The notes below the pieces were generated by a model that was given only the letters and a program-made list of their open reading frames with translations, searched no databases and was not told the DNA's origin. A program made the position numbers and the translations under genes. This document shows, in pieces, positions 3,494 through 45,135 of a DNA stretch of 47,403 nt; position 1 is the first letter of the stretch, and each line of letters opens with the position of its first letter. Origin of the DNA: Parcubacteria group bacterium (GTDB lineage: Bacteria > Patescibacteriota > Minisyncoccia > Phycocordibacterales > Phycocordibacteraceae); the NCBI GenBank assembly GCA_028286615.1, contig JAQBRG010000008.1:1-47403 (forward strand), written 5' to 3'.

Positions 3494-6029
<2,536 letters not shown>

Positions 6030-6033
<4 letters not shown>

Positions 6034-6590
6034 AGCCAATTTGTGATATTTTCGGTCACCGTTACCGTGTGCGGAATACGTGCAGTGATCCAACTTACGG
6101 TTACCGTGAGCTTAACTTCGTTTGGACTTCCCGCAATGCGGGTTAACTGCAAGCTACGTGTGAAGCGGCTCACGGTATTTGTCTGGGATGTAGCCCTGTG
6201 GTTGTACGCATACTTGTTGTTGAGATTTGCGTTGCCCTCAATATTGAGTGGCAGGCATCCGCTTGAAGGACAGATTGTTATCTGGCTTGCGAGTGCGGCA
6301 TTCGGATCAACCATGCAGGTGGCGTTCGCAAAGCAAGAACTGATGCGGCTAACCCATCCATCGGCACCAAATGTTGATTGCCCGTTTAAATAGTTCACGT
6401 CACGAACGTTACGCGCAAACTCAAGTCCTTCTTGAGCGAGCGAGGTTGCAATAAGTTCGTCACGAGCCACATACGCCGCGTTCACAGAACTCTGCACAAC
6501 GGTAAATGGTCCCGCAATAGCGAGCATCACGATAGTGATGGCAACCATCGTCTCAACCAGAGTAAATCCTTGAGGTTTCTGGTGCGTCAT
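6030..6590 (-). CDS. Type IV pilin-like protein (pseudopilin)
   Basis: N-terminal cleavage/methylation motif QGFTLVETMVAITIVMLAI. Confidence 0.8.
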
Positions 6591-7147
6591 AGGTCAAGAG
6601 TGCGTTGGCTAACGCCTGTCTGTATGGCAAAGCTAATTGAACGTGTTGGGCTTGCAACCATGGTGCCACGAAGCGCTATCGTTACGTACGGCTGGTCTTG
6701 GTCTGCGGTACTGCCAGCGCCATGAACGGCAAAACGAAGACCGCTCGTGGCATCAAACTTGATGCGAGGATCGGTAAGTGAAATCGCTGTGTTGTCGTTA
6801 CAGGCTCCTGAACCAACGCAGCGTGCTACGGTACCGTCCGTAGTCTTGAGGAAGTACACAACAGCTTGTCCTTGGTTATCGGTAAACGAAAAACGTGAAC
6901 AAGTTGAGCCGTCTCCCCCGCTTAGGCATAGATAGTTAGTTCCTGTGCGAATGGCTCTCGACATGCTTTCCATAGCGAAAGAAAGGTTCGTTGAGAGGTC
7001 GTTGGTTGCGCGTGTCTCGCGATCAAGCGCAATGAGCGTGAGATATGCCGAGGTAACCGCAAGCATCACCATACTAAAGATAGCTACCGATACGATAAGC
7101 TCGAGAAGACTGAAGCCGCGACGAGAAGTGGAGTACATCATGGGCAA
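6587..7147 (-). CDS. Type IV pilin-like protein (pseudopilin)
   Basis: N-terminal motif RRGFSLLELIVSVAIFSMV. There are 4-nt overlaps with both neighbouring genes. Confidence 0.8.
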   Translation of the reverse strand: MPMMYSTSRRGFSLLELIVSVAIFSMVMLAVTSAYLTLIALDRETRATNDLSTNLSFAMESMSRAIRTGTNYLCLSGGDGSTCSRFSFTDNQGQAVVYFLKTTDGTVARCVGSGACNDNTAISLTDPRIKFDATSGLRFAVHGAGSTADQDQPYVTIALRGTMVASPTRSISFAIQTGVSQRTLDL

Positions 7148-7842
7148 GTGGCGATGACTGCTATCTGGCCCACCTTACTTATACTGATACATCTTGTGCT
7201 CTTACCGTCTGGAGACTTCACCGTTATGCCGGCACTCGTGTACGCACGCGAAGTACCGTTCTTCGTGCCTATAATGTTGCTGTCCGTTGAGGGGCGCTGG
7301 AAGACAACATCAAGGGTGTCGAGATTGCTACCGCTTGCACAATCTTTTCCGCTGCTCCCTGTCGCACAGATATCGCTGATGGTGTAATTGCGATTGAATA
7401 CAAAGGATCGAACAATCGCATCGCTTCCAACAGTGTAGATACAATCTCCCGGGCGCGCTTCAGGGGTTCCAGGCGGCGCGCTTGATGGACATAAGCCATT
7501 CGTGCCTCCAGAGGTTGGCTGTGAAGGACTAACGTCTGCGAATAAGTCGTATGTTGCAGGTTTGGTACGGTCAAAGTGCACGCCGTATCCTGAGTTTAGG
7601 ATATTGGTTCCGCTATTAGAGAAAACTCGGCTTGAAAGACCTCGAGACTGCGCTTCGCGGAAGGTGAACGCAATTGTGTAAGCGGTATCAGTTAGAACGA
7701 TGGAGTGGTTGAAATCATTCTCCCCAAGCAGAAGAATGCCGGTGATTAGACCGATGATGGCCAGCACGATTACCATCTCGAGGAGACTGAAGCCGCGAGG
7801 CCGTGCCTCATGCGTATTCTTTAGAATTGAAAGGGATTCCAT
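7138..7842 (-). CDS. Type IV pilin-like protein (pseudopilin)
   Basis: N-terminal motif PRGFSLLEMVIVLAIIGLI. Confidence 0.8.
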   Translation of the reverse strand: MESLSILKNTHEARPRGFSLLEMVIVLAIIGLITGILLLGENDFNHSIVLTDTAYTIAFTFREAQSRGLSSRVFSNSGTNILNSGYGVHFDRTKPATYDLFADVSPSQPTSGGTNGLCPSSAPPGTPEARPGDCIYTVGSDAIVRSFVFNRNYTISDICATGSSGKDCASGSNLDTLDVVFQRPSTDSNIIGTKNGTSRAYTSAGITVKSPDGKSTRCISISKVGQIAVIATCP

Positions 7843-8570
7843 TGTGTAAAAAAGGCAAGTAGATAGCCGGCTGCCAGAAACGGCACGAACGGCACCTCAA
7901 TACCCATTCTATGCCCTCGAGGGTGTCGCACCAATATCACTATCCCAACAAGTGCCCCTATCCAGAACGAAAACAGAAGGCCTGAGATTGCAGCTGAGCT
8001 AACTAGGAGCGAAAGAGCGAGCGCAACTGGCGCATCTCCCAATCCCATGGCCCTTCCCTTTGAGAATACGTAGAGCGCAAGGAAGAACAGACCTATAACA
8101 CCAGCAACAAGACCCGAGATGCCGAGAGAGATAAGGCTTGGTGCAGTTAGATATGCAAAACCTATAGAAAAGATAAGAAGAAGATTCGAAGCTCCTTGCG
8201 GAACAACCGTGTGGCGAAGATCGTAGAGGACAATGAAAAGAAGTACGGATAGGGCTAGAAGGAATAAGACTAGGGCGTAGGAAAGACCTAGCTGGTGGTA
8301 ACTAAGAGCAAATAACCCGGCAAGTACAAGCTCCGTTAGTGCGTACTGAAACGGTATGCGGGAGTGACAGGAGAAACAACGTCCTTTTGATGCTAGCCAA
8401 GAAAATACCGGGATAAGATCCCGCATACCTAGCTCCCGCGCGCATGAGTTGCACCGAGACCTATCGTTAATCCAGGCTTCCCCGGTGTAGAGCCGTTCAG
8501 AGAGTACTCCAATAAAACTTGCGAGTACTGCACCCAGAAGCGCAAAGAACACCGTGATGATAATTTCCAT
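7821..8570 (-). CDS. pilD: Prepilin peptidase (A24 family)
   Basis: Polytopic membrane protein with Cys pairs (CNSCARELGMRDLIPVFSWLASKGRCFSCHS) and a GLGD motif. I prefer the ATG at 8570 (MEIIITVFF). The GTG at 8633 would put the start inside the pilin terminator hairpin. Confidence 0.88.
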   Translation of the reverse strand: MEIIITVFFALLGAVLASFIGVLSERLYTGEAWINDRSRCNSCARELGMRDLIPVFSWLASKGRCFSCHSRIPFQYALTELVLAGLFALSYHQLGLSYALVLFLLALSVLLFIVLYDLRHTVVPQGASNLLLIFSIGFAYLTAPSLISLGISGLVAGVIGLFFLALYVFSKGRAMGLGDAPVALALSLLVSSAAISGLLFSFWIGALVGIVILVRHPRGHRMGIEVPFVPFLAAGYLLAFFTQWNPFQF

Positions 8571-29960: not shown

Positions 29961-29961
29961 G

Positions 29962-30035
29962 TGCGCCCATCAGGACTCGAACCTGAAACCGCTTAGGTAT
30001 AAGCTAAGTGCTCTAACCAATTGAGCTATAGGCGC
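29962..30035 (-). tRNA. tRNA-Ile (anticodon UAU)
   Basis: The reverse complement folds as GCGCCTA-TA-GCTC-AATTGGTTA-GAGC-A-CTTAG-CTTATAC-CTAAG-CGGTT-TCAGG-TTCGAGT-CCTGA-TGGGCGC-A. The anticodon loop C-T-TAT-A-C gives UAU. Confidence 0.85.
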
Positions 30036-33038: not shown

Positions 33039-33447
33039 GGGGGTGACCGGCTTTGACGGTCTGTACTTTGAGAGACGTGCGACGCAGTGGAAGGTTGTTG
33101 ACCACTTAAATCTCGCAACCACAAATACTTGCAAACAAAACTGCAAGCGTGTCTCCTTACTTTACTGCTAAGGATTTCACGTTCGCTTACGCGTAAGGGT
33201 TGAGCCTCGGCTCCTCTTCGCCTAAGCGACGTCTCTTTTTCTAGGTTCTCGTAGCTAGGAACTGAGGCGGAATTCTCTACGAGATCGGTATCGAGGGTTT
33301 CCCAGCTCTCGGCTTAAAAGATGGGATTAGGCAGGAACGTTTTCGCTCGAGTTCCTATGTTTCTGCTGAACCTACAACACGAGCTATGCGTCGTAGATTC
33401 GCTCTTAAAGCCAGATTCGGACCGGAGTTCAACTCTCCGCACCTCCA
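33039..33447 (+). ncRNA. ssrA: tmRNA (ssrA)
   Basis: The 5' GGGGGTGACCGGCTTTGACGG pairs with the 3' CACCTCC, including a G3-U wobble. The T arm is CGGAG-TTCAACT-CTCCG. The candidate tag ORF at 33131-33196 is GCA AAC AAA ... GCG TAA, giving ANKTASVSPYFTAKDFTFAYA. CCA is not encoded. Confidence 0.85.
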
Positions 33448-33458
33448 CATGGTTTCAT

Positions 33459-33484
33459 TAAAAGGCCCTAACGGGCCTTTTAAT
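33459..33484 (+). terminator. Intrinsic terminator after ssrA
   Basis: AAAGGCCC-TAAC-GGGCCTTT hairpin followed by a T-rich tail. Confidence 0.7.
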
Positions 33485-33567
33485 ATATACACGTCTTTAT
33501 CGTTGGGAGGTTCTACTATTCTGCAGCCATCTATCATAGAGCCCTTATTTCCCACCACCTCTCCTGC

Positions 33568-34893
33568 TCACATTGAAGGCTTGCTTTGATTTAACTTTGC
33601 AACCAAAAGCGTCAGTACGTTGTGAACAGAAGTTGATGTCATGCTTCTTGTAGTCTCGGTCCGCTGTACATACCCCCTATGGGCGTAATTGTTTCTGAGT
33701 TTGTACAAATCATCAAACCAAGGCTTTAACTCAGGCTTCAGTACATTGATAGCTCCAATAATGTATTTGGTCATGTCTTTGGTAATCCCTTTCGGAACAA
33801 ATAGATGTTCTAGACAACAATAAATTTGAAGGATTTTTGCACCTAAGTCTGGAATCTGTGTAGCGGAACTTAATATATCCAAAGTTGGAGCAATATCGCT
33901 AATACATGGACTAGTCCATGGATTTTTCAGATGCTCAAAAATCACTTTCGATTCGTTAAAAACCTTTTCAACCCCGCCTAAGTTTCTTCCATCTAAAAAC
34001 ATTGGGACAATACCTCGATACCCAAAGGACAGAAACAAGACGCCATCAGGAATCTTTTCCCAGGGTTTCTTTTCGTCCTCCTCCCAACTGTAGCCACCTC
34101 CCATAGCCTCAGGTCTCAGCATATACGGTGAGGAAGGTGCCATGATTTGAACTTTACCGGTTCCAAAATCTACTTGAGCTGGATACAAAAAAGCTGCAAC
34201 TCTTAAGACATTCAGGAAGGCGCGTAGTCGAGCTGTCCCGACAAAATACACGTACGTCCAACTTCCTTCGGTTTCGTAGCTAAAAGCTAAAGGACAATGT
34301 CGAATCGAGTCTGCTCCGGCTCCTGGATATAAATCTGTAAAAGTTTTATTGAACTTCGCATGACGTTTTTCTTGATCAAAATCCACGTATGCTCTGTAGG
34401 ACGGATCAAATTTTCCAAAGAACCCATCGAAAAACTCAGACCGAGTCTTTTCTGTTTCAAAATCTCTCAAGTCACTAATCTCCACGACTAGTGCACGCTT
34501 TATTATTGATCCCTCAAGGGCCAGTAAGTGTTTTTCAATTATGTCTTCGATCTTTTCACTCTTTTCACTCCAACTGAAAACAAAAGCACGTTCTGCAAAT
34601 AGGTCTGATCCACCAGCTCTCTGCGCAAATTCATGATCTGTCTGACAAGCCTTTAAAAGCTTCGCCTTAAAACAAATAGTGACGATATCTAGCGGTGCTA
34701 TCTTAAGATCTTTTTCTTCGAATTCCTGAAATAAACTTAGGAGCTCAGTCAGCAAGGCCCTTCTTTGGTAATACTTTTCTTTCCCCCACTTATCAAGTAA
34801 TGGCATTTGCATCGCAAGTGCTACTTCCGTCTCGGCAACGGCTTCAAGTCTTATAAAGGTTTCCTCACCAACTGAATTTCTAATCGCTGACAT
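33568..34893 (-). CDS. Large hypothetical protein with a C-terminal HEPN-type RNxxAH motif (candidate RNase/abortive-infection effector)
   Basis: 441 aa. The C-terminal helical region is CCLEHLF...WFDDLYKLRNNYAHRGY, with the Rx4H at 33679-33696. I recognise no motif in the N-terminal ~330 aa. Confidence 0.7.
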   Translation of the reverse strand: MSAIRNSVGEETFIRLEAVAETEVALAMQMPLLDKWGKEKYYQRRALLTELLSLFQEFEEKDLKIAPLDIVTICFKAKLLKACQTDHEFAQRAGGSDLFAERAFVFSWSEKSEKIEDIIEKHLLALEGSIIKRALVVEISDLRDFETEKTRSEFFDGFFGKFDPSYRAYVDFDQEKRHAKFNKTFTDLYPGAGADSIRHCPLAFSYETEGSWTYVYFVGTARLRAFLNVLRVAAFLYPAQVDFGTGKVQIMAPSSPYMLRPEAMGGGYSWEEDEKKPWEKIPDGVLFLSFGYRGIVPMFLDGRNLGGVEKVFNESKVIFEHLKNPWTSPCISDIAPTLDILSSATQIPDLGAKILQIYCCLEHLFVPKGITKDMTKYIIGAINVLKPELKPWFDDLYKLRNNYAHRGYVQRTETTRSMTSTSVHNVLTLLVAKLNQSKPSM

Positions 34894-34894
34894 T

Positions 34895-35431
34895 TTATTC
34901 GAAATTCGTTTTCACTCTTACTTTCTCTGTCATTTCGTTAACGCTGATATACCCAAGCGCATCCACATCAGGGTTATAGAGCTCAATCATATCGAGATCG
35001 TCACGCGGGAAAATTCGTGCGCCAGGAATGGCTTCTCCCTGCTGGAGTGATTCTTTCGTCTTCTTATAGCGCTCCGGCTCCATAACGAAATCTATATCAC
35101 CTGCCTGCGCGCGATAGATGTCTGGCTGACGAATGTAGAGATGGGTGTAGGTGGCTTCCGGTATATCCCCTTCTGCTGGAATGACGATAGGTTCGTGAAG
35201 ACGGAAATACTTCTGATTTTCGTTATCGGACTCTTCCGTGAGTTGCTTGCGCAGTTCAGTCAGGAATTTGTATTCCTCATCGTAGTGACAGAAAAAGCCG
35301 ACATTCCCTGCTATAGGTAGGTATTCATCAAGAGAGGCGTTGCAGAGCTTGAAGCACTCGATATGGATATGTCGAATGGCTTCGAGTAGGTCTGCATGGG
35401 TCGTGACAGGACTGAAACGGTATAGCTTCAT
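34895..35431 (-). CDS. Hypothetical protein, translationally coupled partner of the HEPN-motif gene
   Basis: Its stop TAA is 1 nt before the ATG of the downstream gene. I prefer the ATG at 35431 (MKLYRFSPV). No recognisable domain. Confidence 0.6.
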   Translation of the reverse strand: MKLYRFSPVTTHADLLEAIRHIHIECFKLCNASLDEYLPIAGNVGFFCHYDEEYKFLTELRKQLTEESDNENQKYFRLHEPIVIPAEGDIPEATYTHLYIRQPDIYRAQAGDIDFVMEPERYKKTKESLQQGEAIPGARIFPRDDLDMIELYNPDVDALGYISVNEMTEKVRVKTNFE

Positions 35432-35498
35432 GGCCCTAAGTATATGCCTATTTTCTATATGCTCTAGGCCCGCAACGTAGGTGCTACCATGTGAGGAA

Positions 35499-36092
35499 AT
35501 GAAAGAAGCAATAGGAGTCATCGGGGTGATTCTCACGTTCGTCGCCTACATTCCCTATTACCGAGACATCATCTCTGGTAAGACTCGACCTCATGTATAC
35601 AGCTGGTCGTTGTGGAGTTTGCTTACGATTCTGATTGTTGCTCTACAGATACAGGGAGGTGCTGGTCCGGCTACGTGGGTAACAGCGGCAGCAGGACTTT
35701 TGTGCGTAGGTGTAGTCTTTCTAAGCTTAAGGAATGGCAAGAAGGACATAACGAAGTCCGACACAGCTGTCGCTATTCTTTCCTTACTTGCGATTGTTTT
35801 CTGGCTTTTCATTCATCAACCAGAAATCTCGCTTACACTAGTGATAGTTGCTGACTTGCTCGCCTTCATACCAACTGTGCGTAAATCGTATATTGATCCT
35901 TACTCCGAGACCTTATCGCTTTACATAACTAATGCGCTTCGTTTTGGGCTGACCTTGCTCGCAGTTGAGCACTATACGTACCTCTCATCTGCATGGGTTA
36001 TTGCTTGGGCGGTAGGTAATGCATTGCTCTCTCTGCTCCTTATCGCACGCAGAATGAAGCTTCGAAAAGGAGGTTCTAATCTAGCGTCCTAG
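35499..36092 (+). CDS. Polytopic membrane protein (about 6 TM)
   Basis: Hydrophobic throughout. ATG 35499 is preceded by GAGGA. It is divergent from the two-gene module. Its last codons contain a GGTTCTAATCTAG motif copy. Confidence 0.6.
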   Translation: MKEAIGVIGVILTFVAYIPYYRDIISGKTRPHVYSWSLWSLLTILIVALQIQGGAGPATWVTAAAGLLCVGVVFLSLRNGKKDITKSDTAVAILSLLAIVFWLFIHQPEISLTLVIVADLLAFIPTVRKSYIDPYSETLSLYITNALRFGLTLLAVEHYTYLSSAWVIAWAVGNALLSLLLIARRMKLRKGGSNLAS

Positions 36093-36149
36093 TTCTGAGT
36101 ACCCCGTAGGTACGTATTGGCTTTCGTGTACTCATGGTGATACCCAGTC

Positions 36150-36295
36150 ATCAACCACTCGTAGGAAATATGAGGAGCCGTTTAGCATCAGCGAAGTTCT
36201 AACCTGGAATAACCAATTCCACAACTATACTCATTTTGAGTACACTCACTATGCTTAGAAAGCCGCCCATGAGGCGGCTTTCAATGTTAGAATCT
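36150..36295 (+). repeat. Cassette-boundary repeat, copy C (37-nt conserved module plus GC hairpin)
   Basis: The module at 36187-36223 is ATCAGCGAAGTTCTAACCTGGAATAACCAATTCCACA. The hairpin is GAAAGCCGCC-CATGA-GGCGGCTTTC (36258-36282), and GTTAGAATCTCTACAT follows at the end. Confidence 0.7.
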
Positions 36296-36299
36296 CTAC

Positions 36300-36602
36300 A
36301 TGTTTGAAGTTGCTGCAATACTACTGATCCCAACAGTTATTCTCTCGTTCATTATTCTGGGATTATTCCGTTTACTTACAAAGGTAATCCGTATTAATCG
36401 CTTTGGGACATCCATCTTTGGAGCGATAGTATTTCGTCTCTGTGAATTGGCCATTTATATAGGCGGAATGACATATATAACAAACATCTACGCCTACGGC
36501 GGAAAAATGACCTTTTCGGCGATACTTGCAATAGTATTTGCTGTTTATTATGCGATTTATTTAGGCATTGACCTATTGATCCATAGAAAGAGACTGTCCT
36601 AG
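36300..36602 (+). CDS. Small membrane protein (3 TM)
   Basis: 100-aa hydrophobic ORF bounded by repeat copies C and D. Confidence 0.5.
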   Translation: MFEVAAILLIPTVILSFIILGLFRLLTKVIRINRFGTSIFGAIVFRLCELAIYIGGMTYITNIYAYGGKMTFSAILAIVFAVYYAIYLGIDLLIHRKRLS

Positions 36603-36619
36603 GCTTTCCAAGAATCAAT

Positions 36620-36735
36620 AATTCGTGGGAAGTGTGTGGAACTGCTTTGTATCAGCGAGGTTCTTATATCGGATAACAACCTCCACGCATAAGGAAAATG
36701 AGAGAACCTCCCAAGGGGCGGCTCTCTCATTTCTT
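36620..36735 (+). repeat. Cassette-boundary repeat, copy D
   Basis: The module at 36651-36687 is ATCAGCGAGGTTCTTATATCGGATAACAACCTCCACG. It is followed by the hairpin AAATGAGAGA...TCTCTCATTT (about 36696-36732) and a T-rich tail. Confidence 0.7.
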
Positions 36736-36809
36736 AAAATTACTCTACGCCGGCTGCCAAAGCTCAATAGGATTTCCTTCTGGCTGGATTGAGTAGCCCG
36801 AGTTAGATA

Positions 36810-37175
36810 TTATTTAAAATATGCTCCTGTAAGAATTACAGGCAATATAAATACTATGACAGAAAGGAAGTATGGCCCAAAGAGCAGAGCTCCTGTCACC
36901 ATCGCTATGATTCCCAGGGCTCTTGCGAGTTGATAGCCGAGAGACCCCTTTGTACCTTTTACATGAGACTTGGATAACCTTCTATAGAAATAAATAGTAA
37001 CCAGAAATGCGAATACCATTCCTCCCAATACAAATCCGTTTGGGTCGTAATTACCCATACTTTTAACAGCTGGGTAAAAAAGAGAGATGGTTATTATTGC
37101 TGCTACTGAAGTAATTATCTGGTCTTTATGACTAGGAACTTTTGTTGAGAGCGGTGACGTATTTTGAGTTTCCAT
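36810..37175 (-). CDS. Small membrane protein (about 3 TM)
   Basis: 121-aa hydrophobic ORF bounded by repeat copies D and E. Confidence 0.5.
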   Translation of the reverse strand: METQNTSPLSTKVPSHKDQIITSVAAIITISLFYPAVKSMGNYDPNGFVLGGMVFAFLVTIYFYRRLSKSHVKGTKGSLGYQLARALGIIAMVTGALLFGPYFLSVIVFILPVILTGAYFK

Positions 37176-37254
37176 GTCCCAAGCATAACAATGTAGACAC
37201 GGAAGTAAATCACTTGTCCGCTGACACCAAAAGAAGCCAGCTTAGACTTTCCAC

Positions 37255-37400
37255 GAGTCCACGACCCATAAGAACTGTGAGAAACTTTTCAGAATTAGTG
37301 AGGTTCTAACGTCAGATAACCACCTCCACCGATATAGAACCACACGGAAACACGTGGGACATTAGAAAACCGCCTCTACGGGCGGTTTTCTAATCTACAT
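37255..37400 (+). repeat. Cassette-boundary repeat, copy E
   Basis: The module at 37294-37330 is ATTAGTGAGGTTCTAACGTCAGATAACCACCTCCACC. A perfect 13-bp hairpin TTAGAAAACCGCC-TCTACG-GGCGGTTTTCTAA (37362-37393) follows, and the element ends in TTTCTAATCTACAT. Confidence 0.7.
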
Positions 37401-37931
37401 CTGGTCTGGTTCCCTTTCTTTTGAATAGTCAGCCAGATAGTCAGGGTGCCCCCGTTCTTCCAATCCTTTTACGAAGTTCTGCACCAAGGATTTATTTAAA
37501 TGTATCTTCTCCGAAAGTCCTCTTAAGGAATCGAGGTCGCCATCAAGATACGCAATAGTTGCCCGGATATAGTTTGCCCAGTCTTCGTTTTGAGGCCCAA
37601 CTTCTAGAGAGTCGTGGAGGGCTCTTTCAAAATCATCTTTTACGTCTGCTTCACCTTTCGAGAGTCTTATTTGGGCCTTATGGAAGAAAGTTAGTGATCG
37701 AATACTATAAAACTTCGTGCGATCTTGTGTCTCCTGAAACGCTTCAACGATTTCAGGCTGAGAGAGAATCTCAGCCGCCAGCAAAGAACTTTTACGTTCA
37801 CGGTCTGCCTGATCGAGTTCAAGTACCTTATCGAGAAAATTATCTGGGCTGATTCCTCCCGCAGCAAAAGTCTTGCTCAGGTTCTCAAGTGAATTCTCAG
37901 CTCCATTCGGCTGTACTGTCGGCCTTTCCAT
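37395..37931 (-). CDS. Helical hypothetical protein
   Basis: 178-aa soluble, helix-rich ORF with no recognised motif. It is bounded by repeat E and motif copy F. Confidence 0.55.
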   Translation of the reverse strand: MERPTVQPNGAENSLENLSKTFAAGGISPDNFLDKVLELDQADRERKSSLLAAEILSQPEIVEAFQETQDRTKFYSIRSLTFFHKAQIRLSKGEADVKDDFERALHDSLEVGPQNEDWANYIRATIAYLDGDLDSLRGLSEKIHLNKSLVQNFVKGLEERGHPDYLADYSKEREPDQM

Positions 37932-38054
37932 GTAGACAAACTATATCAAGGTTCTAATCGCATGCACCCCCCTCTATAGAAATATATAGAGCAATGGGTC
38001 GCCCTAATCAGGCGACCCATTGTCAGCAAAACTCGGCAGAGATTCTTACAAGAA

Positions 38055-38492
38055 TTACTTTTCTGCCAATTCTTTAATCTTTTCAAGAGCTTTGGGCCAG
38101 GCTTCATTAAACATACCAGCATACTCATCAGGAAGGTGGAGCAAGTCTATGGATACCTCAGTGCCTCCATCCTTGTCTTGCAGGGTGTAGTTCTCAAAAC
38201 CACTGCTCTCCATAGGCACCTCGATTCCATTCCGCATTTCAGCGTGATGCTCCAAGGAAATGAATTCTTGCGAGCGATTCTCTTTAACGAGGGCCACCAT
38301 ACCGCCCTCCTTCTCGCCTTCCGCGGCTGGACCGAGGAAAAGCATCTTCGAGCCTTCGCTCCAATCACCCTGATAGTAGGACCCTGGCATGAATACCGAG
38401 GTCCATTCACGATACGTCGCATCATCAAGCAGCACATCCCATACTTTCTCGCGAGGAGCATTAATTTGTTTTGAGTAATGAAGATCTGTCAT
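38055..38492 (-). CDS. SRPBCC/Aha1-like (START-fold) domain protein
   Basis: 145 aa. INAPREKVWDVLLDDATYREWTSVF and the C-terminal WPKALEKIKELAE are typical of the AHSA1/SRPBCC family. Confidence 0.7.
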   Translation of the reverse strand: MTDLHYSKQINAPREKVWDVLLDDATYREWTSVFMPGSYYQGDWSEGSKMLFLGPAAEGEKEGGMVALVKENRSQEFISLEHHAEMRNGIEVPMESSGFENYTLQDKDGGTEVSIDLLHLPDEYAGMFNEAWPKALEKIKELAEK

Positions 38493-38590
38493 AAGTAGTG
38501 CGACTAATATCTAATAGACACTAATTTACCACGCAACCTTGAGAAGTCATGGACTAAGTTATCTCGCAGTTCGTAAAATGACCCGAACGC

Positions 38591-38944
38591 TCACTTTACC
38601 GCCTGAAGAATCAGGTCCGTAAATACAGGCACATCAATGTCTTTGAGGGTACGGACTTTGACGTGGCGAACATACTTGCCTTTCCCTATCAACAACTCGT
38701 TCCATTTTTTGAATGATGAGCCGTTATAGAAACCGAACTGTACATGGTCAGGCTCGGTATGGATAAATAATTTTGGTACCGTACCTTTCACCCAACAGCC
38801 CTGTCCCCATTTGACGGTGGTCATGAGCTGAGGAGCCGTACCCTTTACCAATCGCTCTAGCGCGCCGATAAGCTTTTGATTCTTAGGCGATTTGTCCTTC
38901 TTCCATTCAGAGAACGAACCGTACGCTTTCATTTTTTGTGGCAT
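38591..38944 (-). CDS. DUF1801/YdhG-like small protein
   Basis: 117 aa. The pattern EWKKDKSPKNQKLIGALERLV...VKWGQGCW...FGFYNG...YVRHVKV matches my recollection of the DUF1801 family. Confidence 0.55.
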   Translation of the reverse strand: MPQKMKAYGSFSEWKKDKSPKNQKLIGALERLVKGTAPQLMTTVKWGQGCWVKGTVPKLFIHTEPDHVQFGFYNGSSFKKWNELLIGKGKYVRHVKVRTLKDIDVPVFTDLILQAVK

Positions 38945-39048
38945 TGATTTAGTGGCGTTTATTGTGAGTTAATTTTAACTCACAGAAGGCAACAAAAGGT
39001 TCTAATCTACTTTCTCAAAATCCCGCGGGGTCTTTGGGCTCACCCGAA

Positions 39049-39948
39049 ATGCTGGCTGCTATACTTCCACTCATGGAATTATGGTTCTTGCTTGCAATCG
39101 GATCGGCGCTCGCCGGTGGAATTGGTTCTTTCACTCACAAGGTTGCCGCTGTGAAGAACTACGACATTGCCGTACTGAGCGTGTACGCATCGATGATCTC
39201 CGCATTCATGCTTTTGTGTTGCACTCTTTACTTCGCCGGGATGGAACACTTCTGGGAATTCTCCACAGTCATCGCACTCGCAGCAGCTGTTACTACCTTC
39301 CTGACATTAGTTCTTAAAATAAAGTCTCTCCGTCTCATTGATGCGACACTATTCTTCCCGCTGTATAAAGTGTCCGGACCGTTTCTCACTATTCTTCTTG
39401 GAGTCTTAGTATTCCGAGAGTCATTCACTCCCATTGAATGGGTTGGTTTGGTTACAACGTTATGTGTCCCGCTACTTCTGATTACTAGGTCAGAGAATTT
39501 ACGCCAGAAGAATCTTGTCTTGGGTCTCCAGATATTACTTATCGCTTCAATAACAGCGGCTGTATCCATTGGCCTATCCAAGTATGGAACTAACATTGCG
39601 AACAACCTGTGGCTCTTCCTTCTGGTGAGCGAAATATTTACTGTCGCGAGTGCTTTCTTGTTGCTTATACAGAAACACAGAACGGCAACCTTTACATTCT
39701 TCAAGACGGAAAGTTCTCCGGCAGCGCTGTGGCTTGTTCTCATCATGGGTATTACCCAGTCCCTTAGCTTTATGACAATAATGTTCGCGTTTGCTACAGG
39801 CGGTACGTTGGCAATTGTCTATACGATCAGTTCGCTCTACATACTCATTCCCATCATCCTTTCGATTGTTATCTACAAGGAACATTGGAATGCTCGCAAG
39901 GCTATAGCGATTGTGCTCTCGATTGCAGCGCTGGCATTACTTAAATAA
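39049..39948 (+). CDS. EamA/DMT-family transporter
   Basis: About 10 TM segments in two halves. I prefer ATG 39049 over the TTG at 39034. Confidence 0.7.
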   Translation: MLAAILPLMELWFLLAIGSALAGGIGSFTHKVAAVKNYDIAVLSVYASMISAFMLLCCTLYFAGMEHFWEFSTVIALAAAVTTFLTLVLKIKSLRLIDATLFFPLYKVSGPFLTILLGVLVFRESFTPIEWVGLVTTLCVPLLLITRSENLRQKNLVLGLQILLIASITAAVSIGLSKYGTNIANNLWLFLLVSEIFTVASAFLLLIQKHRTATFTFFKTESSPAALWLVLIMGITQSLSFMTIMFAFATGGTLAIVYTISSLYILIPIILSIVIYKEHWNARKAIAIVLSIAALALLK

Positions 39949-40091
39949 TAGAGAGTTCTGCATCCCAGTAGCGAAGTCCTGGCCGAAAGGATTCGCTCCC
40001 GCTGTATCTAGCAAGATGGCCAATAGGTTACTAGTGTGCCTTGCATTCCAGGCAAGCCCCTTGTGCGTTACCATAACCAACAACAACTGTT

Positions 40092-41879
40092 ATGAAATTC
40101 GGTAAGGCGCTGACTCAAGAATCAACTATCTTTCTCATTCGGAAACTGTGGCAATTTTCTAAAGGAAGACATTGGCAGATTGTCCTATATACGGGCATGT
40201 TCGTAGTAGCCAATCTGATCACACTCCTTCCTCCCTTAATTTTCGGAGCATTCATTCGCGAGGTGCAGCAGCAAGGAATAGCAACGGAGAATTACGGTTA
40301 TCTTTTCCTATTACTTTTCTTTCTATTCTTTATAGAGATAGTCTTCTGGGCATTTCACGGACCCGCTCGTATCATCGAGCGTTCGGTAGCATTCTGGGCA
40401 GAACTTAACTATCGACGATACCTACTTAAGGGTGTGCTCGACTTAGGACTAACCTGGCATGGTGAGCACGACTCGGGAGATACGATCGATAAGGTTAATA
40501 AGGCTGGCGATGGTCTGGGCAGCTTTGGTAAGAATGTGTTTCAAATCTTACAGATAGTTATTAAGTTGCTGGGTACCTCCATTGTTTTGTTCTACTTCTC
40601 TCCGGCGATAGGTATATTCGTCTTCGTGCTAGTTGTTGTTTCTTTTATTGTTATCTTCCAATTTGATAGATATCTCATACCGCAGTATCGACGTCTTAAT
40701 GAATTCAGTAACAAGGCGATGGCAAGCATATTCGATGCGCTCTCTAACATCACCAGCGTAAAAATACTTCATATCGAGATGCCTGTCTTAAAAGGTATTG
40801 TCTCTCGCTTAGAAGCGCCTTATACCAAGTACCAAGCGAATTCGAAATTAAATGAAGCAAAGTGGTTTACAGGAGGAATTCTTTTCCAGGCAATCGCTGT
40901 TCTCCCCATCGTCTTCTACATCTATCACGCCTCTTCAAGTAACCAGCCTATTGATGCCGGAACAATTTCAACCCTGTTCCTGTACCTAACCAATCTGACA
41001 TTCGTTTATTTTGGCTTTACTGACTTCTATCAAGACCTAGCTATCTACAAAAACCAAGTACTAAACGTGGAGTCTGTGGAAGATGCATTTGCTGCGAAAA
41101 ACATACTCAAGCGAAAGAGCACGAGCGCGTGGGGAACGCTTACTATTAGTGACCTTACGTTTACCTATGATGAAGGCGGAGAAGTACCACACCTATATAA
41201 GGTAGGTCTCCAAATTCAACGTGGAGAACGAATCGCTGTTATAGGAGAGTCAGGATCAGGAAAGACAACTTTTCTTAAGGTGCTCCATGGACTTTACCCT
41301 TCCGCTCAGGGAACACTGACCTTGGATAGATCAGAGAGTATACCAACCTCCTTCGCAGACTTGGATCTTAAGACCATGCTCGTTCCACAAGAACCGGAAA
41401 TATTCTCTTCAACCATTCGCGAGAACATAACGCTGGGCATTGCCTATCCAGAGGAGGACATCGTGCACGCGATGCGTGTCGCAAACTTTGAGAAGGTAGT
41501 GCAGGAACTGCCGAGCGGTCTTGATTCTGTAATAAACGAAAAAGGAGTGAGTCTTTCTGGTGGCCAGAAGCAGCGTCTAGCACTTTCACGCGCACTTCTT
41601 TTTGCTAGAGATAAAGAAATGATTCTTTTGGATGAATCAACCAGTTCTGTTGATTCAGAAAATGAGACCGAGATCTATACAAACATTTGGCAAGACTTTG
41701 TAGGCAAGACCGTCATAGCTTCTATCCATAAGATGAATTTGCTCAAACTCTTCGATCGCATTTATATCTTTGAAAAGGGGCAGATAGTTGACGCTGGATC
41801 TTTTGACGATCTTCTAAACAGGAGCGCTTCTTTCAAAGATGCGTGGGATCAGTTTGTCGCAATGCGACGAGAAAAATAA
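40092..41879 (+). CDS. ABC exporter, fused permease/ATPase
   Basis: 595 aa with a 6-TM N-terminal domain, Walker A GESGSGKTT, the signature LSGGQKQR and Walker B ILLDEST. Confidence 0.9.
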   Translation: MKFGKALTQESTIFLIRKLWQFSKGRHWQIVLYTGMFVVANLITLLPPLIFGAFIREVQQQGIATENYGYLFLLLFFLFFIEIVFWAFHGPARIIERSVAFWAELNYRRYLLKGVLDLGLTWHGEHDSGDTIDKVNKAGDGLGSFGKNVFQILQIVIKLLGTSIVLFYFSPAIGIFVFVLVVVSFIVIFQFDRYLIPQYRRLNEFSNKAMASIFDALSNITSVKILHIEMPVLKGIVSRLEAPYTKYQANSKLNEAKWFTGGILFQAIAVLPIVFYIYHASSSNQPIDAGTISTLFLYLTNLTFVYFGFTDFYQDLAIYKNQVLNVESVEDAFAAKNILKRKSTSAWGTLTISDLTFTYDEGGEVPHLYKVGLQIQRGERIAVIGESGSGKTTFLKVLHGLYPSAQGTLTLDRSESIPTSFADLDLKTMLVPQEPEIFSSTIRENITLGIAYPEEDIVHAMRVANFEKVVQELPSGLDSVINEKGVSLSGGQKQRLALSRALLFARDKEMILLDESTSSVDSENETEIYTNIWQDFVGKTVIASIHKMNLLKLFDRIYIFEKGQIVDAGSFDDLLNRSASFKDAWDQFVAMRREK

Positions 41880-42363
41880 GTCGGTTACCGCTATCACTGA
41901 AAATACTTCTTATGGCCTTCTGCATAAGGCCAGCTCCTCTGACAACTTATCGGACTTTATCAACAGTTACTCTCTCAAACAATCCTAGACGTTGTACGGA
42001 AATTTAAACCTCGCAGCCTCCACTGAGATTACAAGCAGATTCAAAACATGAAGAGTACATCTTTTAAGTTGATGGTGCCTAAATATCGAAGGTACCTAAC
42101 TCGTAGTTATCCATGTGGCTTACTTATTAGCGAAGTCGGATAGATTTTATACCTATAAAGAGCTTTATCCAGACCAATGTATGCAGAGATACAGATATGG
42201 TTCGTTACCAGGGCTCGTGCGTACAAAACAACCAATGTAACTCTCCAAAACAATCTTGCATTATTCTTTTCTTAAAAAGAAAAAGCCTGCTAAATGGCCG
42301 TATCTTGCGTGATAGCATACGGGAGTGTTGCAGAAAACACTTTACTCATCCCCTATCGCCATT

Positions 42364-45135
42364 ATGAATCTTCGGAAGCTTCCCCTGCTAGTGGGCATTC
42401 TCTTGTTCACTCTCGCACCGTTCACCACACATGCAGCATTACTCGTTTCAGATCTTGCGCCCGGCATACAAAACGCCGAAGTGTCTGACTTGCAAAACGC
42501 ACTTGCAAAGATGGGGTACTTCAACGCACTTGAGCGTGGGTACTTCGGTTCACAAACGCAAACCGCGCTTCGCTCATTCCAGACTACAGCCGGACTTCCT
42601 GTCACAGGACTTCCTGATGCGTTGACGCGTAATGCAATTAATTCTTTTAGCCAGTTCAATTCCGCTTCTCCCACAGCTTCAGGAATTCACGCTGGAGCCA
42701 CGTCCTCAACAGGAGACGTGCTCGGTGCAAGCACAGAGCGCGTTAACGCAAATCTTTCGATTGGCACTTCTGGAGACCAGGTACGTATTCTTCAAGAATG
42801 GTTGAAGCGTCTCGGATATTTTCAGGAAACAGCAACCGGCTATTACGGAACACTTACGAGTGCAGCTGTTAGCAGATTCCAACAAGCATATGGAATTCCA
42901 GTTGTAGGTACTGTTGGTCCTATTACGCGCGAAAGACTTAACGCGTTAGTTTCAACTGGAACTACAGTAGTTAGTACTCCTACTCTTACTCTCACAGCAA
43001 GCAAAACTCCTGTTCAGTCAAAGGACTCTGTAGAAATTTCTTGGACTGCGACGAACGCAAGTTCTTGTCGCGCTTCAGGTGCATGGTCTGGGTCAAAAAG
43101 AGTTTCTGGTTCTGATACACAAAAGAACCTAACCTCGGGCAAGACCTACAAACTTACCTGCTCAGGTACTTCAGGCTCTGTAGAGAAATCTGTAACGGTA
43201 GATGTAGCTAGAGTGTCTTCTGCAAATGCTCCATCCGTTTCTTTCTCTGTCTCCCCTTCTGAGGTTTCCCAAGGAGGAACCACGACCATTACTTGGTCTT
43301 CGAAAGATGCCACCAGCTGTACAGCTACTGACACTTCGCTATGGAATGCCGGCAACCTCACTGCTGGAAAGGTAACGGTATCTAACCTGCAAACTTCCCG
43401 AAGCTTCGGGGTTACTTGTTCAGGAGCCGGAGGTTCTGTAACAAAGTCAGATTCAGTCACCGTACGAAGCGTTTCTACCAGTAGCACAGGCGACACGGGA
43501 ACCGTTGTTACTTCAACACCGGCACCGGCTCACACCACCCCTACGACGTCTGATCCTGTGCCTACGCACACAACCACAACTATTCCCACGCCAACGACGC
43601 CAACACACGGCACAACTGCCCCTGATCCAACGGTTTCCTTCTCGGCAAACCGCACAAGCGTCTCTTATAACGATAGCGTTACCCTCACCTGGTCTTCGAC
43701 TAACGCTACGAGCTGCACCGCAAGTGGTGCAGGTTGGTCTACTTCCCAGCCAACGGCAGGGACCGTTACCGTGCCGCGCATGACAGCAAGTCAGACATAC
43801 ACTCTTACTTGCAGCGGTGCAGGCGGAAACTCATCGAAATCAATTGCTATCACGGTTGGTGCTGCGCCCGTAACAACGACTCCTTCTACTCCTACGACTC
43901 CTCCTCCTTCTACCACTCCCCCACCAACACCTACTCCAAGCACCACAGGGCTTCCTGTGCTCCTTAAGGCTTCAGGTGGGCTCACTGGTCCGCAGAATGG
44001 TGTCGCTTCAATCACCTACAACTGGACTGGAGTTCCGATGGCAGCTGACTACTACATGTTCGTGCATGTCCTTGATGCAAACGGTGGGATTCTCTTCCAG
44101 AACGACTCGCCAATACCGTCACGTACCTGGTCCGGTCCCTACTCAATGACTAATTCGGTTAAAGTTCCCGCAGGTATCCCGGTTGGAAAATACAGCCTAC
44201 GTGCAGGAATCTTCTCGCTCGCGAGCGGATATCCAAAAATGCCTGTTACTCCTGGTCCTGGCGTAACCAAGACCGGCGGTGAAGAGGCGTACATTATCGG
44301 CACCCTCACAGTCACGGCGGGTACAAATCTTCCGTACAGTCCTCCGAATGATCCATCTGCGTATCCTGGAATGCCAGTTCAGACTTCGATTCCGAACGCC
44401 GGCGACCCGATAACCGGAAACTTCAATGACGACTTCCACCCCGCAGGTATGAATCTCAAATTCCATGATGAGTTCAACGGGACGAAACTTAACACCAACA
44501 CTTGGAACGAGATGTATCTCTGGGGCGACCGATTCCTCTCAGGTAACAGCGAGAAAGAGTGTTACCTCGAAGAGAACGTGCGTGTCGCTGGCGGCAACTT
44601 GATCTTCGACGCGAAGAAACAAGATGTTATCTGTCCTAAGTACAACATCGTGCAGCCTTACACCTCAGGCATGGTCACGACCTCGAAATCCTTCGTGCAG
44701 TCGTACGGCTACTGGGCTATAAGAACGAAGCTTCCTCGCGGTCAAGGATTCTGGCCAGCCTTCTGGCTCCTCCCTAACAACGCTGGATGGCCACCTGAGC
44801 TCGACATCTTCGAAGTGCTCGATCAGGACCCGACGACGCTCTACAACTCGATTCACACCTCGTCTCCGACAAATCCTAATATTGGATTGACGCTTACGGC
44901 GAAGGTCGCCGACCTCAGTACTTCGTATCACGTGATAGCGGCTGACTGGGAACCAACCTACATAATCTTCTATCTCGATGGTGTAGAGGTGAATCGCATC
45001 AACCAGGTGTTCAACAGCATCCCGATGTATCTCGTTGCCAATCTTGGCGTCGGTGGCTCATGGGGAGGAAACCCTGATTCCACGACCCCATTCCCTTCTA
45101 CGATGGATACGGATTGGATACGTGTCTACAAGTAA
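42364..45135 (+). CDS. Large secreted multidomain protein: two PG-binding domains, three Ig-like repeats, Thr/Pro linkers and a C-terminal GH16 glycoside hydrolase
   Basis: The start is at ATG 42364 (MNLRKLPLLVGILLFTLAPFTTHA, a signal peptide). There are two PG_binding_1-like repeats and three repeats of the type (I/L)(S/T)W(S/T)(A/S)(T/K)(N/D)A(S/T)SC...TCSG. The GH16 catalytic motif WPPELDIFE lies at 44797-44814. Confidence 0.85.
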   Translation: MNLRKLPLLVGILLFTLAPFTTHAALLVSDLAPGIQNAEVSDLQNALAKMGYFNALERGYFGSQTQTALRSFQTTAGLPVTGLPDALTRNAINSFSQFNSASPTASGIHAGATSSTGDVLGASTERVNANLSIGTSGDQVRILQEWLKRLGYFQETATGYYGTLTSAAVSRFQQAYGIPVVGTVGPITRERLNALVSTGTTVVSTPTLTLTASKTPVQSKDSVEISWTATNASSCRASGAWSGSKRVSGSDTQKNLTSGKTYKLTCSGTSGSVEKSVTVDVARVSSANAPSVSFSVSPSEVSQGGTTTITWSSKDATSCTATDTSLWNAGNLTAGKVTVSNLQTSRSFGVTCSGAGGSVTKSDSVTVRSVSTSSTGDTGTVVTSTPAPAHTTPTTSDPVPTHTTTTIPTPTTPTHGTTAPDPTVSFSANRTSVSYNDSVTLTWSSTNATSCTASGAGWSTSQPTAGTVTVPRMTASQTYTLTCSGAGGNSSKSIAITVGAAPVTTTPSTPTTPPPSTTPPPTPTPSTTGLPVLLKASGGLTGPQNGVASITYNWTGVPMAADYYMFVHVLDANGGILFQNDSPIPSRTWSGPYSMTNSVKVPAGIPVGKYSLRAGIFSLASGYPKMPVTPGPGVTKTGGEEAYIIGTLTVTAGTNLPYSPPNDPSAYPGMPVQTSIPNAGDPITGNFNDDFHPAGMNLKFHDEFNGTKLNTNTWNEMYLWGDRFLSGNSEKECYLEENVRVAGGNLIFDAKKQDVICPKYNIVQPYTSGMVTTSKSFVQSYGYWAIRTKLPRGQGFWPAFWLLPNNAGWPPELDIFEVLDQDPTTLYNSIHTSSPTNPNIGLTLTAKVADLSTSYHVIAADWEPTYIIFYLDGVEVNRINQVFNSIPMYLVANLGVGGSWGGNPDSTTPFPSTMDTDWIRVYK

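Follow-up and report, generated by a model that had tools for sequence, protein, structure and literature searches.

What do two closely spaced genes beside ssrA, the gene for transfer-messenger RNA (tmRNA), amount to in the genome of a Parcubacteria group bacterium? The whole stretch of DNA that we analyzed (hereafter the window: 47,403 nt, contig JAQBRG010000008.1 of assembly GCA_028286615.1; coordinates are those of the window unless another locus is named by an L number) carries on its minus strand gene 1, encoding 178 aa, and, one nucleotide further on, gene 2, encoding 441 aa (Table 1). A preliminary description, made from the sequence alone, had placed both open reading frames (ORFs) and their 1-nt spacing correctly; it had also proposed that they form a translationally coupled two-gene module, the second gene being a HEPN-type effector with a candidate role in immunity. 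We find that gene 1 and gene 2 are not a functional two-gene module. We read gene 2 as a stand-alone accessory gene in which a novel N-terminal region is joined to a HEPN-like tail, and which may encode a single-protein RNase of the abortive-infection (Abi) or toxin type; to this reading we assign a probability of roughly 0.5.

The separation of the two genes emerged from a synteny survey. Besides the window, gene 2 was located at 43 loci, about 37 of them independent (31 GTDB species-representative loci and 12 obtained by exact protein look-up), and tblastn of up to 10 kb around gene 2 detected no homolog of gene 1 at any of them. Nor was gene 2 found at any of 86 other gene 1 loci; the two genes occur together in the window only. 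The gene that precedes gene 2 in L049 encodes 179 aa and was considered as a gene 1 homolog; the two show no similarity. Gene 1 is separated by comparably narrow, 1-nt-like gaps from dozens of unrelated neighbors, so tight spacing is a trait of these compact genomes and no sign of functional coupling: in the compact genomes of the Candidate Phyla Radiation (CPR), a 1-nt stop–start spacing is no evidence for a functional module. Since gene 2 has no small conserved partner either upstream or downstream, its protein must act alone.

The family to which gene 2 belongs is small and scattered. No match was obtained for gene 2 in Pfam, NCBIfam, PADLOC (E up to 1) or PHROG. When 1.84 billion representatives were searched exhaustively with a profile, 85 clusters emerged, all of whose members are either full-length (about 420–445 aa) or fragments; this hidden Markov model search gave no relative with another architecture that would form a bridge to a named HEPN family. 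The sequences recovered in the homolog search share 40–77% identity. Among 185,579 species representatives, 31 carry the gene, in three phyla and at 35–53% identity: Patescibacteria (Saccharibacteria, Peregrinibacteria, Magasanikbacteria, Adlerbacteria, Kaiserbacteria and Absconditabacterales included), many Acidobacteriota (Terriglobia) and two Bacteroidota, one of which is the cultured Draconibacterium sediminis JN14CK-3. Pseudogenised copies, with split or truncated ORFs, are present in L017, L037 and L040, and tblastn matches are split or partial in L037, L038 and L040. The Absconditabacterales copy (L039, 10001–11224) gives a full-length tblastn match (residues 1–438) and has no intact ORF under code 11; Absconditabacterales read UGA as Gly, which would fit the missing code-11 ORF.

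Our hypothesis for the activity of the gene 2 protein derives from its C-terminal part. An AlphaFold2 model (pLDDT 85.9, pTM 0.86) comprises an alpha/beta region of about 320 N-terminal residues, with no assignable fold, and a helical region in which DSSP delimits helices at residues 328–344, 350–365, 374–385, 387–406 and 413–437. That this region contains an Rx4H motif, as first noted from the sequence, is borne out by the family: the motif lies within LYKLRNNYAHRGY (residues 396–408), and the 45 aligned members all have R400, with H405 present in at least 90% of them. A strict motif pattern is matched by 117 of the 134 full-length members, with the His kept in 116 of these 117, and most of the 17 that fail miss solely at the residue preceding the Arg. 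The RNxxAH form originally described is correct for the window copy and does not extend to the family, in which RCxYAH prevails: the invariant Arg is followed by Cys in 104 of the 117 (~89%) and by Asn in 11, the window copy among them. In the model, R400 and H405 are situated at the C-terminal end of helix 387–406, ahead of the loop to the last helix, and the invariant E362, together with H363, lies at the end of helix 350–365.

In HEPN domains, the Rx4-6H motif ends helix-3, helix-2 bears a conserved acidic residue that is typically in an Ex3[KR] form, helices 2 and 3 are often split by an insert that is sometimes helical, and N, D or H usually follows the Arg of the motif (PMC3710099). We propose that, in the gene 2 model, residues 328–344 would correspond to helix-1, 350–365 to helix-2, 374–385 to the insert, 387–406 to helix-3 and 413–437 to helix-4. 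On this assignment, which compares the secondary-structure order of the model, gene 2 fits three of the four features, the acidic residue (E362) by its position in helix-2 although its context is not Ex3[KR], and the residue after the Arg fits in the window copy and 10 others only. When the PDB was searched with Foldseek, the best match was 4nqf (‘HEPN domain protein’; E 0.98, probability 0.35), and the top 30 also included 2hsb and 2q00, the latter of which we take to be a HEPN protein. The former, 2hsb, is a HEPN protein (PDB title; PMC3710099). We rate a HEPN fold for the C-terminus of gene 2 as probable, and not as demonstrated, because the layout fits but the fold and profile searches fall below significance. 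The HEPN-type effector of the preliminary description thereby retains a conserved motif at the place where HEPN domains bear it, and is left without a Pfam HEPN match or a Foldseek match above threshold.

Conservation within the family is highest outside the helical domain, in a stretch that includes W278, D283, G284, L286, S289, G291, R293 and G294. The sole low-confidence segment of the model (residues 264–289, pLDDT <50; positions 34027–34104, minus strand) holds or abuts these residues, and possibly serves as an interface or as a ligand loop.

The genomic surroundings of gene 2 point to mobile elements and to defence islands. Its sole recurrent neighbor is a large serine recombinase: related copies (55–60% identity) are found no more than 10 kb away in L001, L005, L013, L021, L028, L033, L034 and L043, and in L001, L005 and L021 gene 2 directly adjoins the recombinase gene. 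Terminase genes are near gene 2 in L001, L005 and L033, in the last of which it is flanked by recombinase and terminase, and L003 offers a prophage context, in which a capsid gene is nearby, as is a tyrosine integrase. Defence-type neighbors include SduA (Shedu) and a weak SngA-like match (PADLOC 2.3e-8) in the defence island of L049, and in L036 a DDE transposase, HigB and an M78 peptidase are close to gene 2. In D. sediminis JN14CK-3 (L035, contig NZ_JRHC01000003.1, 9860–11167, plus strand), a 35%-identical gene 2 lies just downstream of genes for a DEAD-box helicase and a Schlafen/AlbA_2 protein. A pooled scan of the 136 nearest neighbors added one strong match to the HamB (Hachiman) helicase, the source locus of which is not indicated by the output, as well as components of Type IIG, II and IV restriction-modification (RM) systems. 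With its patchy spread over phyla, a recombinase in at least eight loci, and Shedu, HamB-type helicase, Schlafen and RM neighbors, gene 2 has the profile of a defence-island or mobile-cargo gene; the alternative outcome foreseen at the outset, namely no link to mobile or defence genes, was not what we found. There is partial support for the view of gene 2 as an accessory gene that moves horizontally. The candidate immunity role is accordingly kept for gene 2, relatives of which stand at prophage edges and in defence islands, and given up for the two-gene module. At the CPR prophage-edge locus L005, a 1214-aa protein with no family match (4355–7999, plus strand) stops a single nucleotide short of the gene 2 homolog; it is found there and in the duplicate contig L006 only.

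A comparison of close relatives revealed that the interval beside ssrA is itself variable. L047 and L011 are close to the window (FtsH 82–83% and RecG 78–80% identical), the FtsH–SmpB–ssrA block is syntenic in both, and the tmRNA is 77–85% identical in L047, L011, L050 and L051 (with confirmation by Rfam in L011 and L047). The window has the order ftsH – smpB – ssrA – gene 2 – gene 1, and L047 the order ftsH – smpB – ssrA – gene 2 (77% identity) – Ldh_2. In L011, the gene after ssrA encodes an unrelated protein of 407 aa that has a Walker A motif (GKGKST), and gene 1 comes next; the corresponding series is ssrA, a 183-aa ORF, a 315-aa protein and gene 1 in L051, and ssrA, a 264-aa ORF, a 234-aa protein and gene 1 in L050. 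Gene 1 and gene 2 thus assort independently, about a slot that differs in content between close relatives. What the interval beside ssrA shows is the pattern of a hotspot, as opposed to that of an island integrated intact. Universal conservation of the pair at this position in the lineage, which the preliminary description had named as a finding that would speak for a housekeeping function, is contradicted both by the presence of gene 2 in 31 of 185,579 species and by its replacement in L011, L050 and L051.

Two of the alternative occupants of the slot merit description. The 407-aa protein of L011 (8540–9763, plus strand) combines its Walker A motif (GKGKST) with a Walker B-like segment (IIVVAEDID) and has a weak PADLOC match to TmtA (1.4e-4) and no Pfam match; the idea that it is a diverged gene 2 was ruled out. 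The 315-aa protein of L051 (2952–3899, plus strand) represents a separate family of 40 homologs, with no Pfam match, with an invariant R-N-D-A-x-G-H motif; the invariant residues R105, R108, G113, H114 and P115 constitute an Rx5H motif, and the protein is possibly a second HEPN-like effector. A relationship between this family and that of gene 2 was dropped at an hhalign probability of 2–4%.

We hypothesize, by analogy with ApeA and HepS, that the N-terminal region of the gene 2 protein would hold the C-terminal nuclease inactive until a cue derived from infection appears. RNA, possibly tRNA, would then be cut via R400 and H405, with E362 and H363 assisting, and this cleavage would stop phage growth. 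The gene would move between phyla in defence islands and on temperate elements that encode a large serine recombinase; its carriage beside the recombinase could make it a prophage ‘moron’ that guards the lysogen. In the lineage of the window it occupies a slot of variable content, bounded by the 3′ end of ssrA on one side and by the next resident gene, gene 1, on the other. A wider picture can be drawn from these elements, although we offer it tentatively: gene 2 would represent a new family of single-protein, HEPN-type Abi nucleases with an unseen sensor domain, spread by serine-recombinase temperate elements among CPR and into Acidobacteriota and Bacteroidota, and the interval between ssrA and gene 1 (which appears to encode a vicinal oxygen chelate, or VOC, fold; see below) would be a lineage-specific hotspot that exchanges unrelated single-gene immune effectors (HEPN-like, P-loop NTPase, Rx5H). 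The gene 2 family is undescribed, yet it would sit within the well-known class of solo HEPN effectors. If the hypothesis is true, the HEPN anticodon nucleases of the ApeA/HepS class gain with gene 2 a sensor domain that is new to them, and a compact, prophage-borne CPR effector that is also present in cultured D. sediminis is directly testable. CPR/Patescibacteria have tiny genomes, rarely carry CRISPR and have few known immune genes (PMC6509639).

A number of observations weigh against this interpretation. Many copies of gene 2 are solitary among housekeeping genes, and its linkage to defence neighbors consists of the individual loci listed above. The context of E362 is LEHLFVPK and not the Ex3[KR] form, and the residue following R400 is in most members the Cys mentioned above. 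The HEPN structures retrieved by Foldseek are all sub-threshold (E about 1–3, probability 0.2–0.35, target TM 0.33–0.45); profile searches of PDB sequences, with the full-length protein and with the C-terminus only, returned nothing relevant; and the Pfam HEPN models did not match, the nearest approach being 1 of the 45 members that touched HEPN_Swt1 at E 0.064. The Pfam scan of these 45 members was otherwise noise (DUF5331 at E 0.04 or worse), and Foldseek of the full model against BFVD gave nothing significant. As for ApeA, the motif of gene 2 differs (RCxYAH), and neither a PADLOC family at E up to 1 nor the Pfam Apea model was matched; both libraries presumably contain ApeA models. No relatives of gene 2 were found in IMG/VR, among INPHARED phages or among PLSDB plasmids. 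Finally, there is no integrase or recombinase between 33.4 and 47.4 kb, and the ssrA 3′ end is not repeated anywhere in the window (as an attachment-site, or att, repeat would require); consequently no intact integrated element is present here; what stands of the ssrA integration hotspot proposed at first is a slot that varies between close relatives.

Some of these points would be accommodated if the C-terminus of gene 2 were helical but not HEPN, with its Arg and His employed in other chemistry or in ligand binding, and its function apart from RNA cleavage and defence. Such an explanation would sit well with profile and fold searches that reach significance for no HEPN family, with the unusual Cys after the Arg, and with the location of the most conserved stretch (W278 to G294) in a low-confidence loop that is not part of the helical domain. 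We nevertheless judge it unlikely, although it deserves serious consideration: motif position, acidic residue and helix order agree with the published HEPN description (PMC3710099), several HEPN structures head a Foldseek list that is otherwise noisy, and the genomic contexts of gene 2 suit conflict systems. A different proposal is that gene 2 has no RNase activity and is a lysogeny, superinfection-exclusion or recombination accessory of the serine-recombinase elements, its copy beside ssrA being a remnant. This would explain why the recombinase is the only recurrent neighbor, directly adjoining gene 2 in three loci and, in L033, enclosing it together with a terminase gene, but there is no recombinase near the Acidobacteriota and Bacteroidota copies, in L044–L046, in the window or in L047, and the last two copies are under purifying selection all the same. 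Bearing in mind also that gene 2 has no match in PHROGs, IMG/VR or INPHARED, and that its conserved R/H/E set suggests catalysis over a purely structural role, we regard a dedicated prophage function as improbable.

Two further explanations treat the position of gene 2 in the window as functional. In a two-gene toxin–antitoxin or defence module, gene 1 would be the antitoxin, sensor or modifier of a translationally coupled gene 2 effector. The shared strand and 1-nt spacer are compatible with this, as is the occurrence of a defence-like or unassigned gene closely after gene 1 in L009 (OLD/GajA-like ATPase), L011 (the P-loop protein with a weak TmtA match) and L051 (the Rx5H protein). Against it, the pair is limited to the window, the genes downstream of gene 1 encode mostly small enzymes, Ldh_2 lies upstream of the nearest gene 2 homolog (77% identity), and GC content at third codon positions (GC3) differs sharply between gene 1 (0.51) and gene 2 (0.37). 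Gene 1 is moreover highly conserved across CPR (63–91% among the 120 matches listed), a degree of conservation that fast-evolving immunity partners would not show. The synteny survey has thus largely refuted the module, which we hold to be very improbable. That gene 2 might be a housekeeping RNA-processing enzyme, tied to trans-translation through its proximity to ssrA and smpB, is suggested by its position beside ssrA in two related lineages, the window and L047; it is never beside ssrA elsewhere, unrelated genes take its place in L011, L050 and L051, and a gene with so few carriers (31 species, 85 clusters worldwide) hardly answers to that description. This reading, to which we give next to no credence, is refuted by the distribution of gene 2.

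The known systems that most resemble the proposed gene 2 effector are single proteins. HepS, encoded by the Gifsy-1 prophage of Salmonella, is an abortive-infection anticodon nuclease with a single HEPN domain that unites sensor and effector in one protein (PMC13043305). Like HepS, gene 2 is a prophage-borne single protein with no dedicated partner gene and an Rx4H-type helical domain, with the reservation that sensing and effector action in one protein are known for HepS and only proposed for gene 2. The two differ in that gene 2 adds an unrelated N-terminal region of about 320 residues and in their host lineages; no similarity between them was detectable in the profile searches of PDB sequences, and HepS was not among the 50 Foldseek PDB matches listed, the presence of HepS in that library being unchecked. 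ApeA is likewise a single-protein HEPN defence system of the abortive-infection kind, and acts as a ligand-activated anticodon nuclease (bioRxiv 10.64898/2026.01.26.701840). It resembles gene 2 in that a single polypeptide joins a non-catalytic N-terminal region to a C-terminal HEPN or HEPN-like domain, and in that the gene is found by itself in defence contexts. With the HEPN superfamily at large (PMC3710099), the gene 2 domain has in common an all-alpha composition of about 110 residues, an Rx4H motif that closes helix-3, a helix-2 with a conserved acidic residue and an insert between helices 2 and 3; it differs in having no profile-level link, in the Cys that mostly follows the Arg, and in an acidic residue that is not in the Ex3[KR] form. 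The resemblance to HEPN-MNT pairs (HepT-MntA) is confined to an Rx4H-type motif carried by the downstream member of two closely spaced genes, and the pairing of gene 1 with gene 2 is not conserved. Gene 2 is presumably also about three times longer than HepT. An HEPN-MNT pair was ruled out by the VOC/YecM-like fold of gene 1, which is not that of a nucleotidyltransferase, and by the lack of any nucleotidyltransferase family match for gene 1 in Pfam and NCBIfam.

Gene 1 is the resident gene that borders the slot. Its AlphaFold2 model (pLDDT 92.2) has as its best PDB match in Foldseek 1k4n (E. coli EC4020/YecM; E 2.8e-4, probability 1.0, TM 0.55); methylmalonyl-CoA epimerases, glyoxalase-family proteins and extradiol dioxygenases come next, and the predicted fold is of the VOC type, and YecM-like. 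The VOC fold is a paired beta-alpha-beta-beta-beta arrangement. The gene 1 protein and YecM share this type of fold and are of similar size (178 vs 183 aa), and to our knowledge no biochemical function has been established for YecM. They differ in that gene 1 has no Pfam or NCBIfam family match, these libraries presumably including the YecM family. A gene 1 profile found nothing relevant among PDB sequences, and PADLOC and PHROG scans gave no meaningful match.

Homologs of gene 1 number more than 1074, with 63–91% identity among the 120 matches listed, and are labelled Patescibacteria, Parcubacteria or Microgenomates. In the 87 loci that we compared (80 of which came from a metagenome scan that confirmed 346), its neighbors fall into 58 different clusters downstream and 59 upstream. 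Most are on the same strand, at gaps of −8 to +30 nt, and they belong to families such as NUDIX, cytidine deaminase, GDSL lipase, RibD_C, APH, aldo-keto reductase, PhzF and queuosine salvage. The family (window, L007–L012, L050–L129) displays very high sequence conservation yet no conserved synteny. The notion that gene 1 is a conserved anchor for variable defence effectors was rejected, its neighbors being mostly ordinary small enzymes. Gene 1 has no link to immunity and resembles neither an antitoxin nor a sensor; we consider it a conserved, VOC/YecM-like small enzyme that is merely adjacent to gene 2, with which it is probably co-transcribed. In L009, an OLD/GajA-like ATPase-Toprim protein (6578–8500, plus strand; PADLOC Old 5.5e-28) comes after gene 1, Ldh_2 and RibD_C genes come before it, and a serine recombinase is nearby.

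Table 1. Features of the ssrA–gene 2–gene 1 region of the window
Feature	Position	Strand	Description or basis
Gene 1	34895..35431	-	178-aa ORF; predicted VOC fold resembling YecM; neighbor of gene 2, not functional partner
Gene 2	33568..34893	-	441-aa ORF; undescribed family
HEPN-like C-terminal domain of gene 2 (residues 328–437)	33583..33912	-	Model helices and HEPN layout
Rx4H motif of gene 2 (codons R400-N-N-Y-A-H405)	33679..33696	-	Family conservation
Gene 1/gene 2 junction (TAA-A-ATG, 1-nt spacer)	34891..34897	-	Sequence read
ssrA (tmRNA gene), conserved flank of the variable slot	33039..33448	+	ARAGORN
ssrA–gene 2 spacer, holding GC-rich hairpin AAAAGGCCCTAACGGGCCTTTT	33449..33567	.	Sequence read

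The start of gene 1 is taken as MKLYRFSP, which is common to 40 aligned homologs, despite a longer GTG-initiated ORF. Downstream of the tmRNA gene, which is preceded by smpB and ftsH, gene 2 is the first gene, as had been described; the two are convergent, with 119 nt between their 3′ ends. Neither the promoter scan nor the terminator scan gave a usable signal, and the hairpin in the spacer (AAAAGGCCCTAACGGGCCTTTT) was not flagged by the simple terminator scan. The values of pN/pS (nonsynonymous and synonymous rates against the nearest homologs) are 0.139/0.768 for gene 2 and 0.06–0.08/0.53–0.65 for gene 1, and on account of these both are real genes under purifying selection. The stretch was also said to be AT-richer than the core genes; this is true of the region (GC 0.438 for 33449–42300 vs 0.497 for 1–33000) and of gene 2, the most AT-rich gene (GC 0.413, GC3 0.369, vs a GC3 of 0.44–0.51 for neighboring genes), and does not apply to gene 1 (GC3 0.514). 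The small, mixed genes reported downstream of the pair are present. A 936-aa protein (42325–45135, plus strand) with peptidoglycan-binding repeats and a GH16 domain has a GC content of 0.513, clearly above that of the AT-richer region around it.

The lineage has also kept a tRNA-Ile with the anticodon UAU (window 29961–30035, minus strand; L011 14410–14484; L047 12685–12759). In most bacteria, AUA is decoded by a lysidine-modified CAU tRNA, and the UAU tRNA-Ile is thus an unusual solution.

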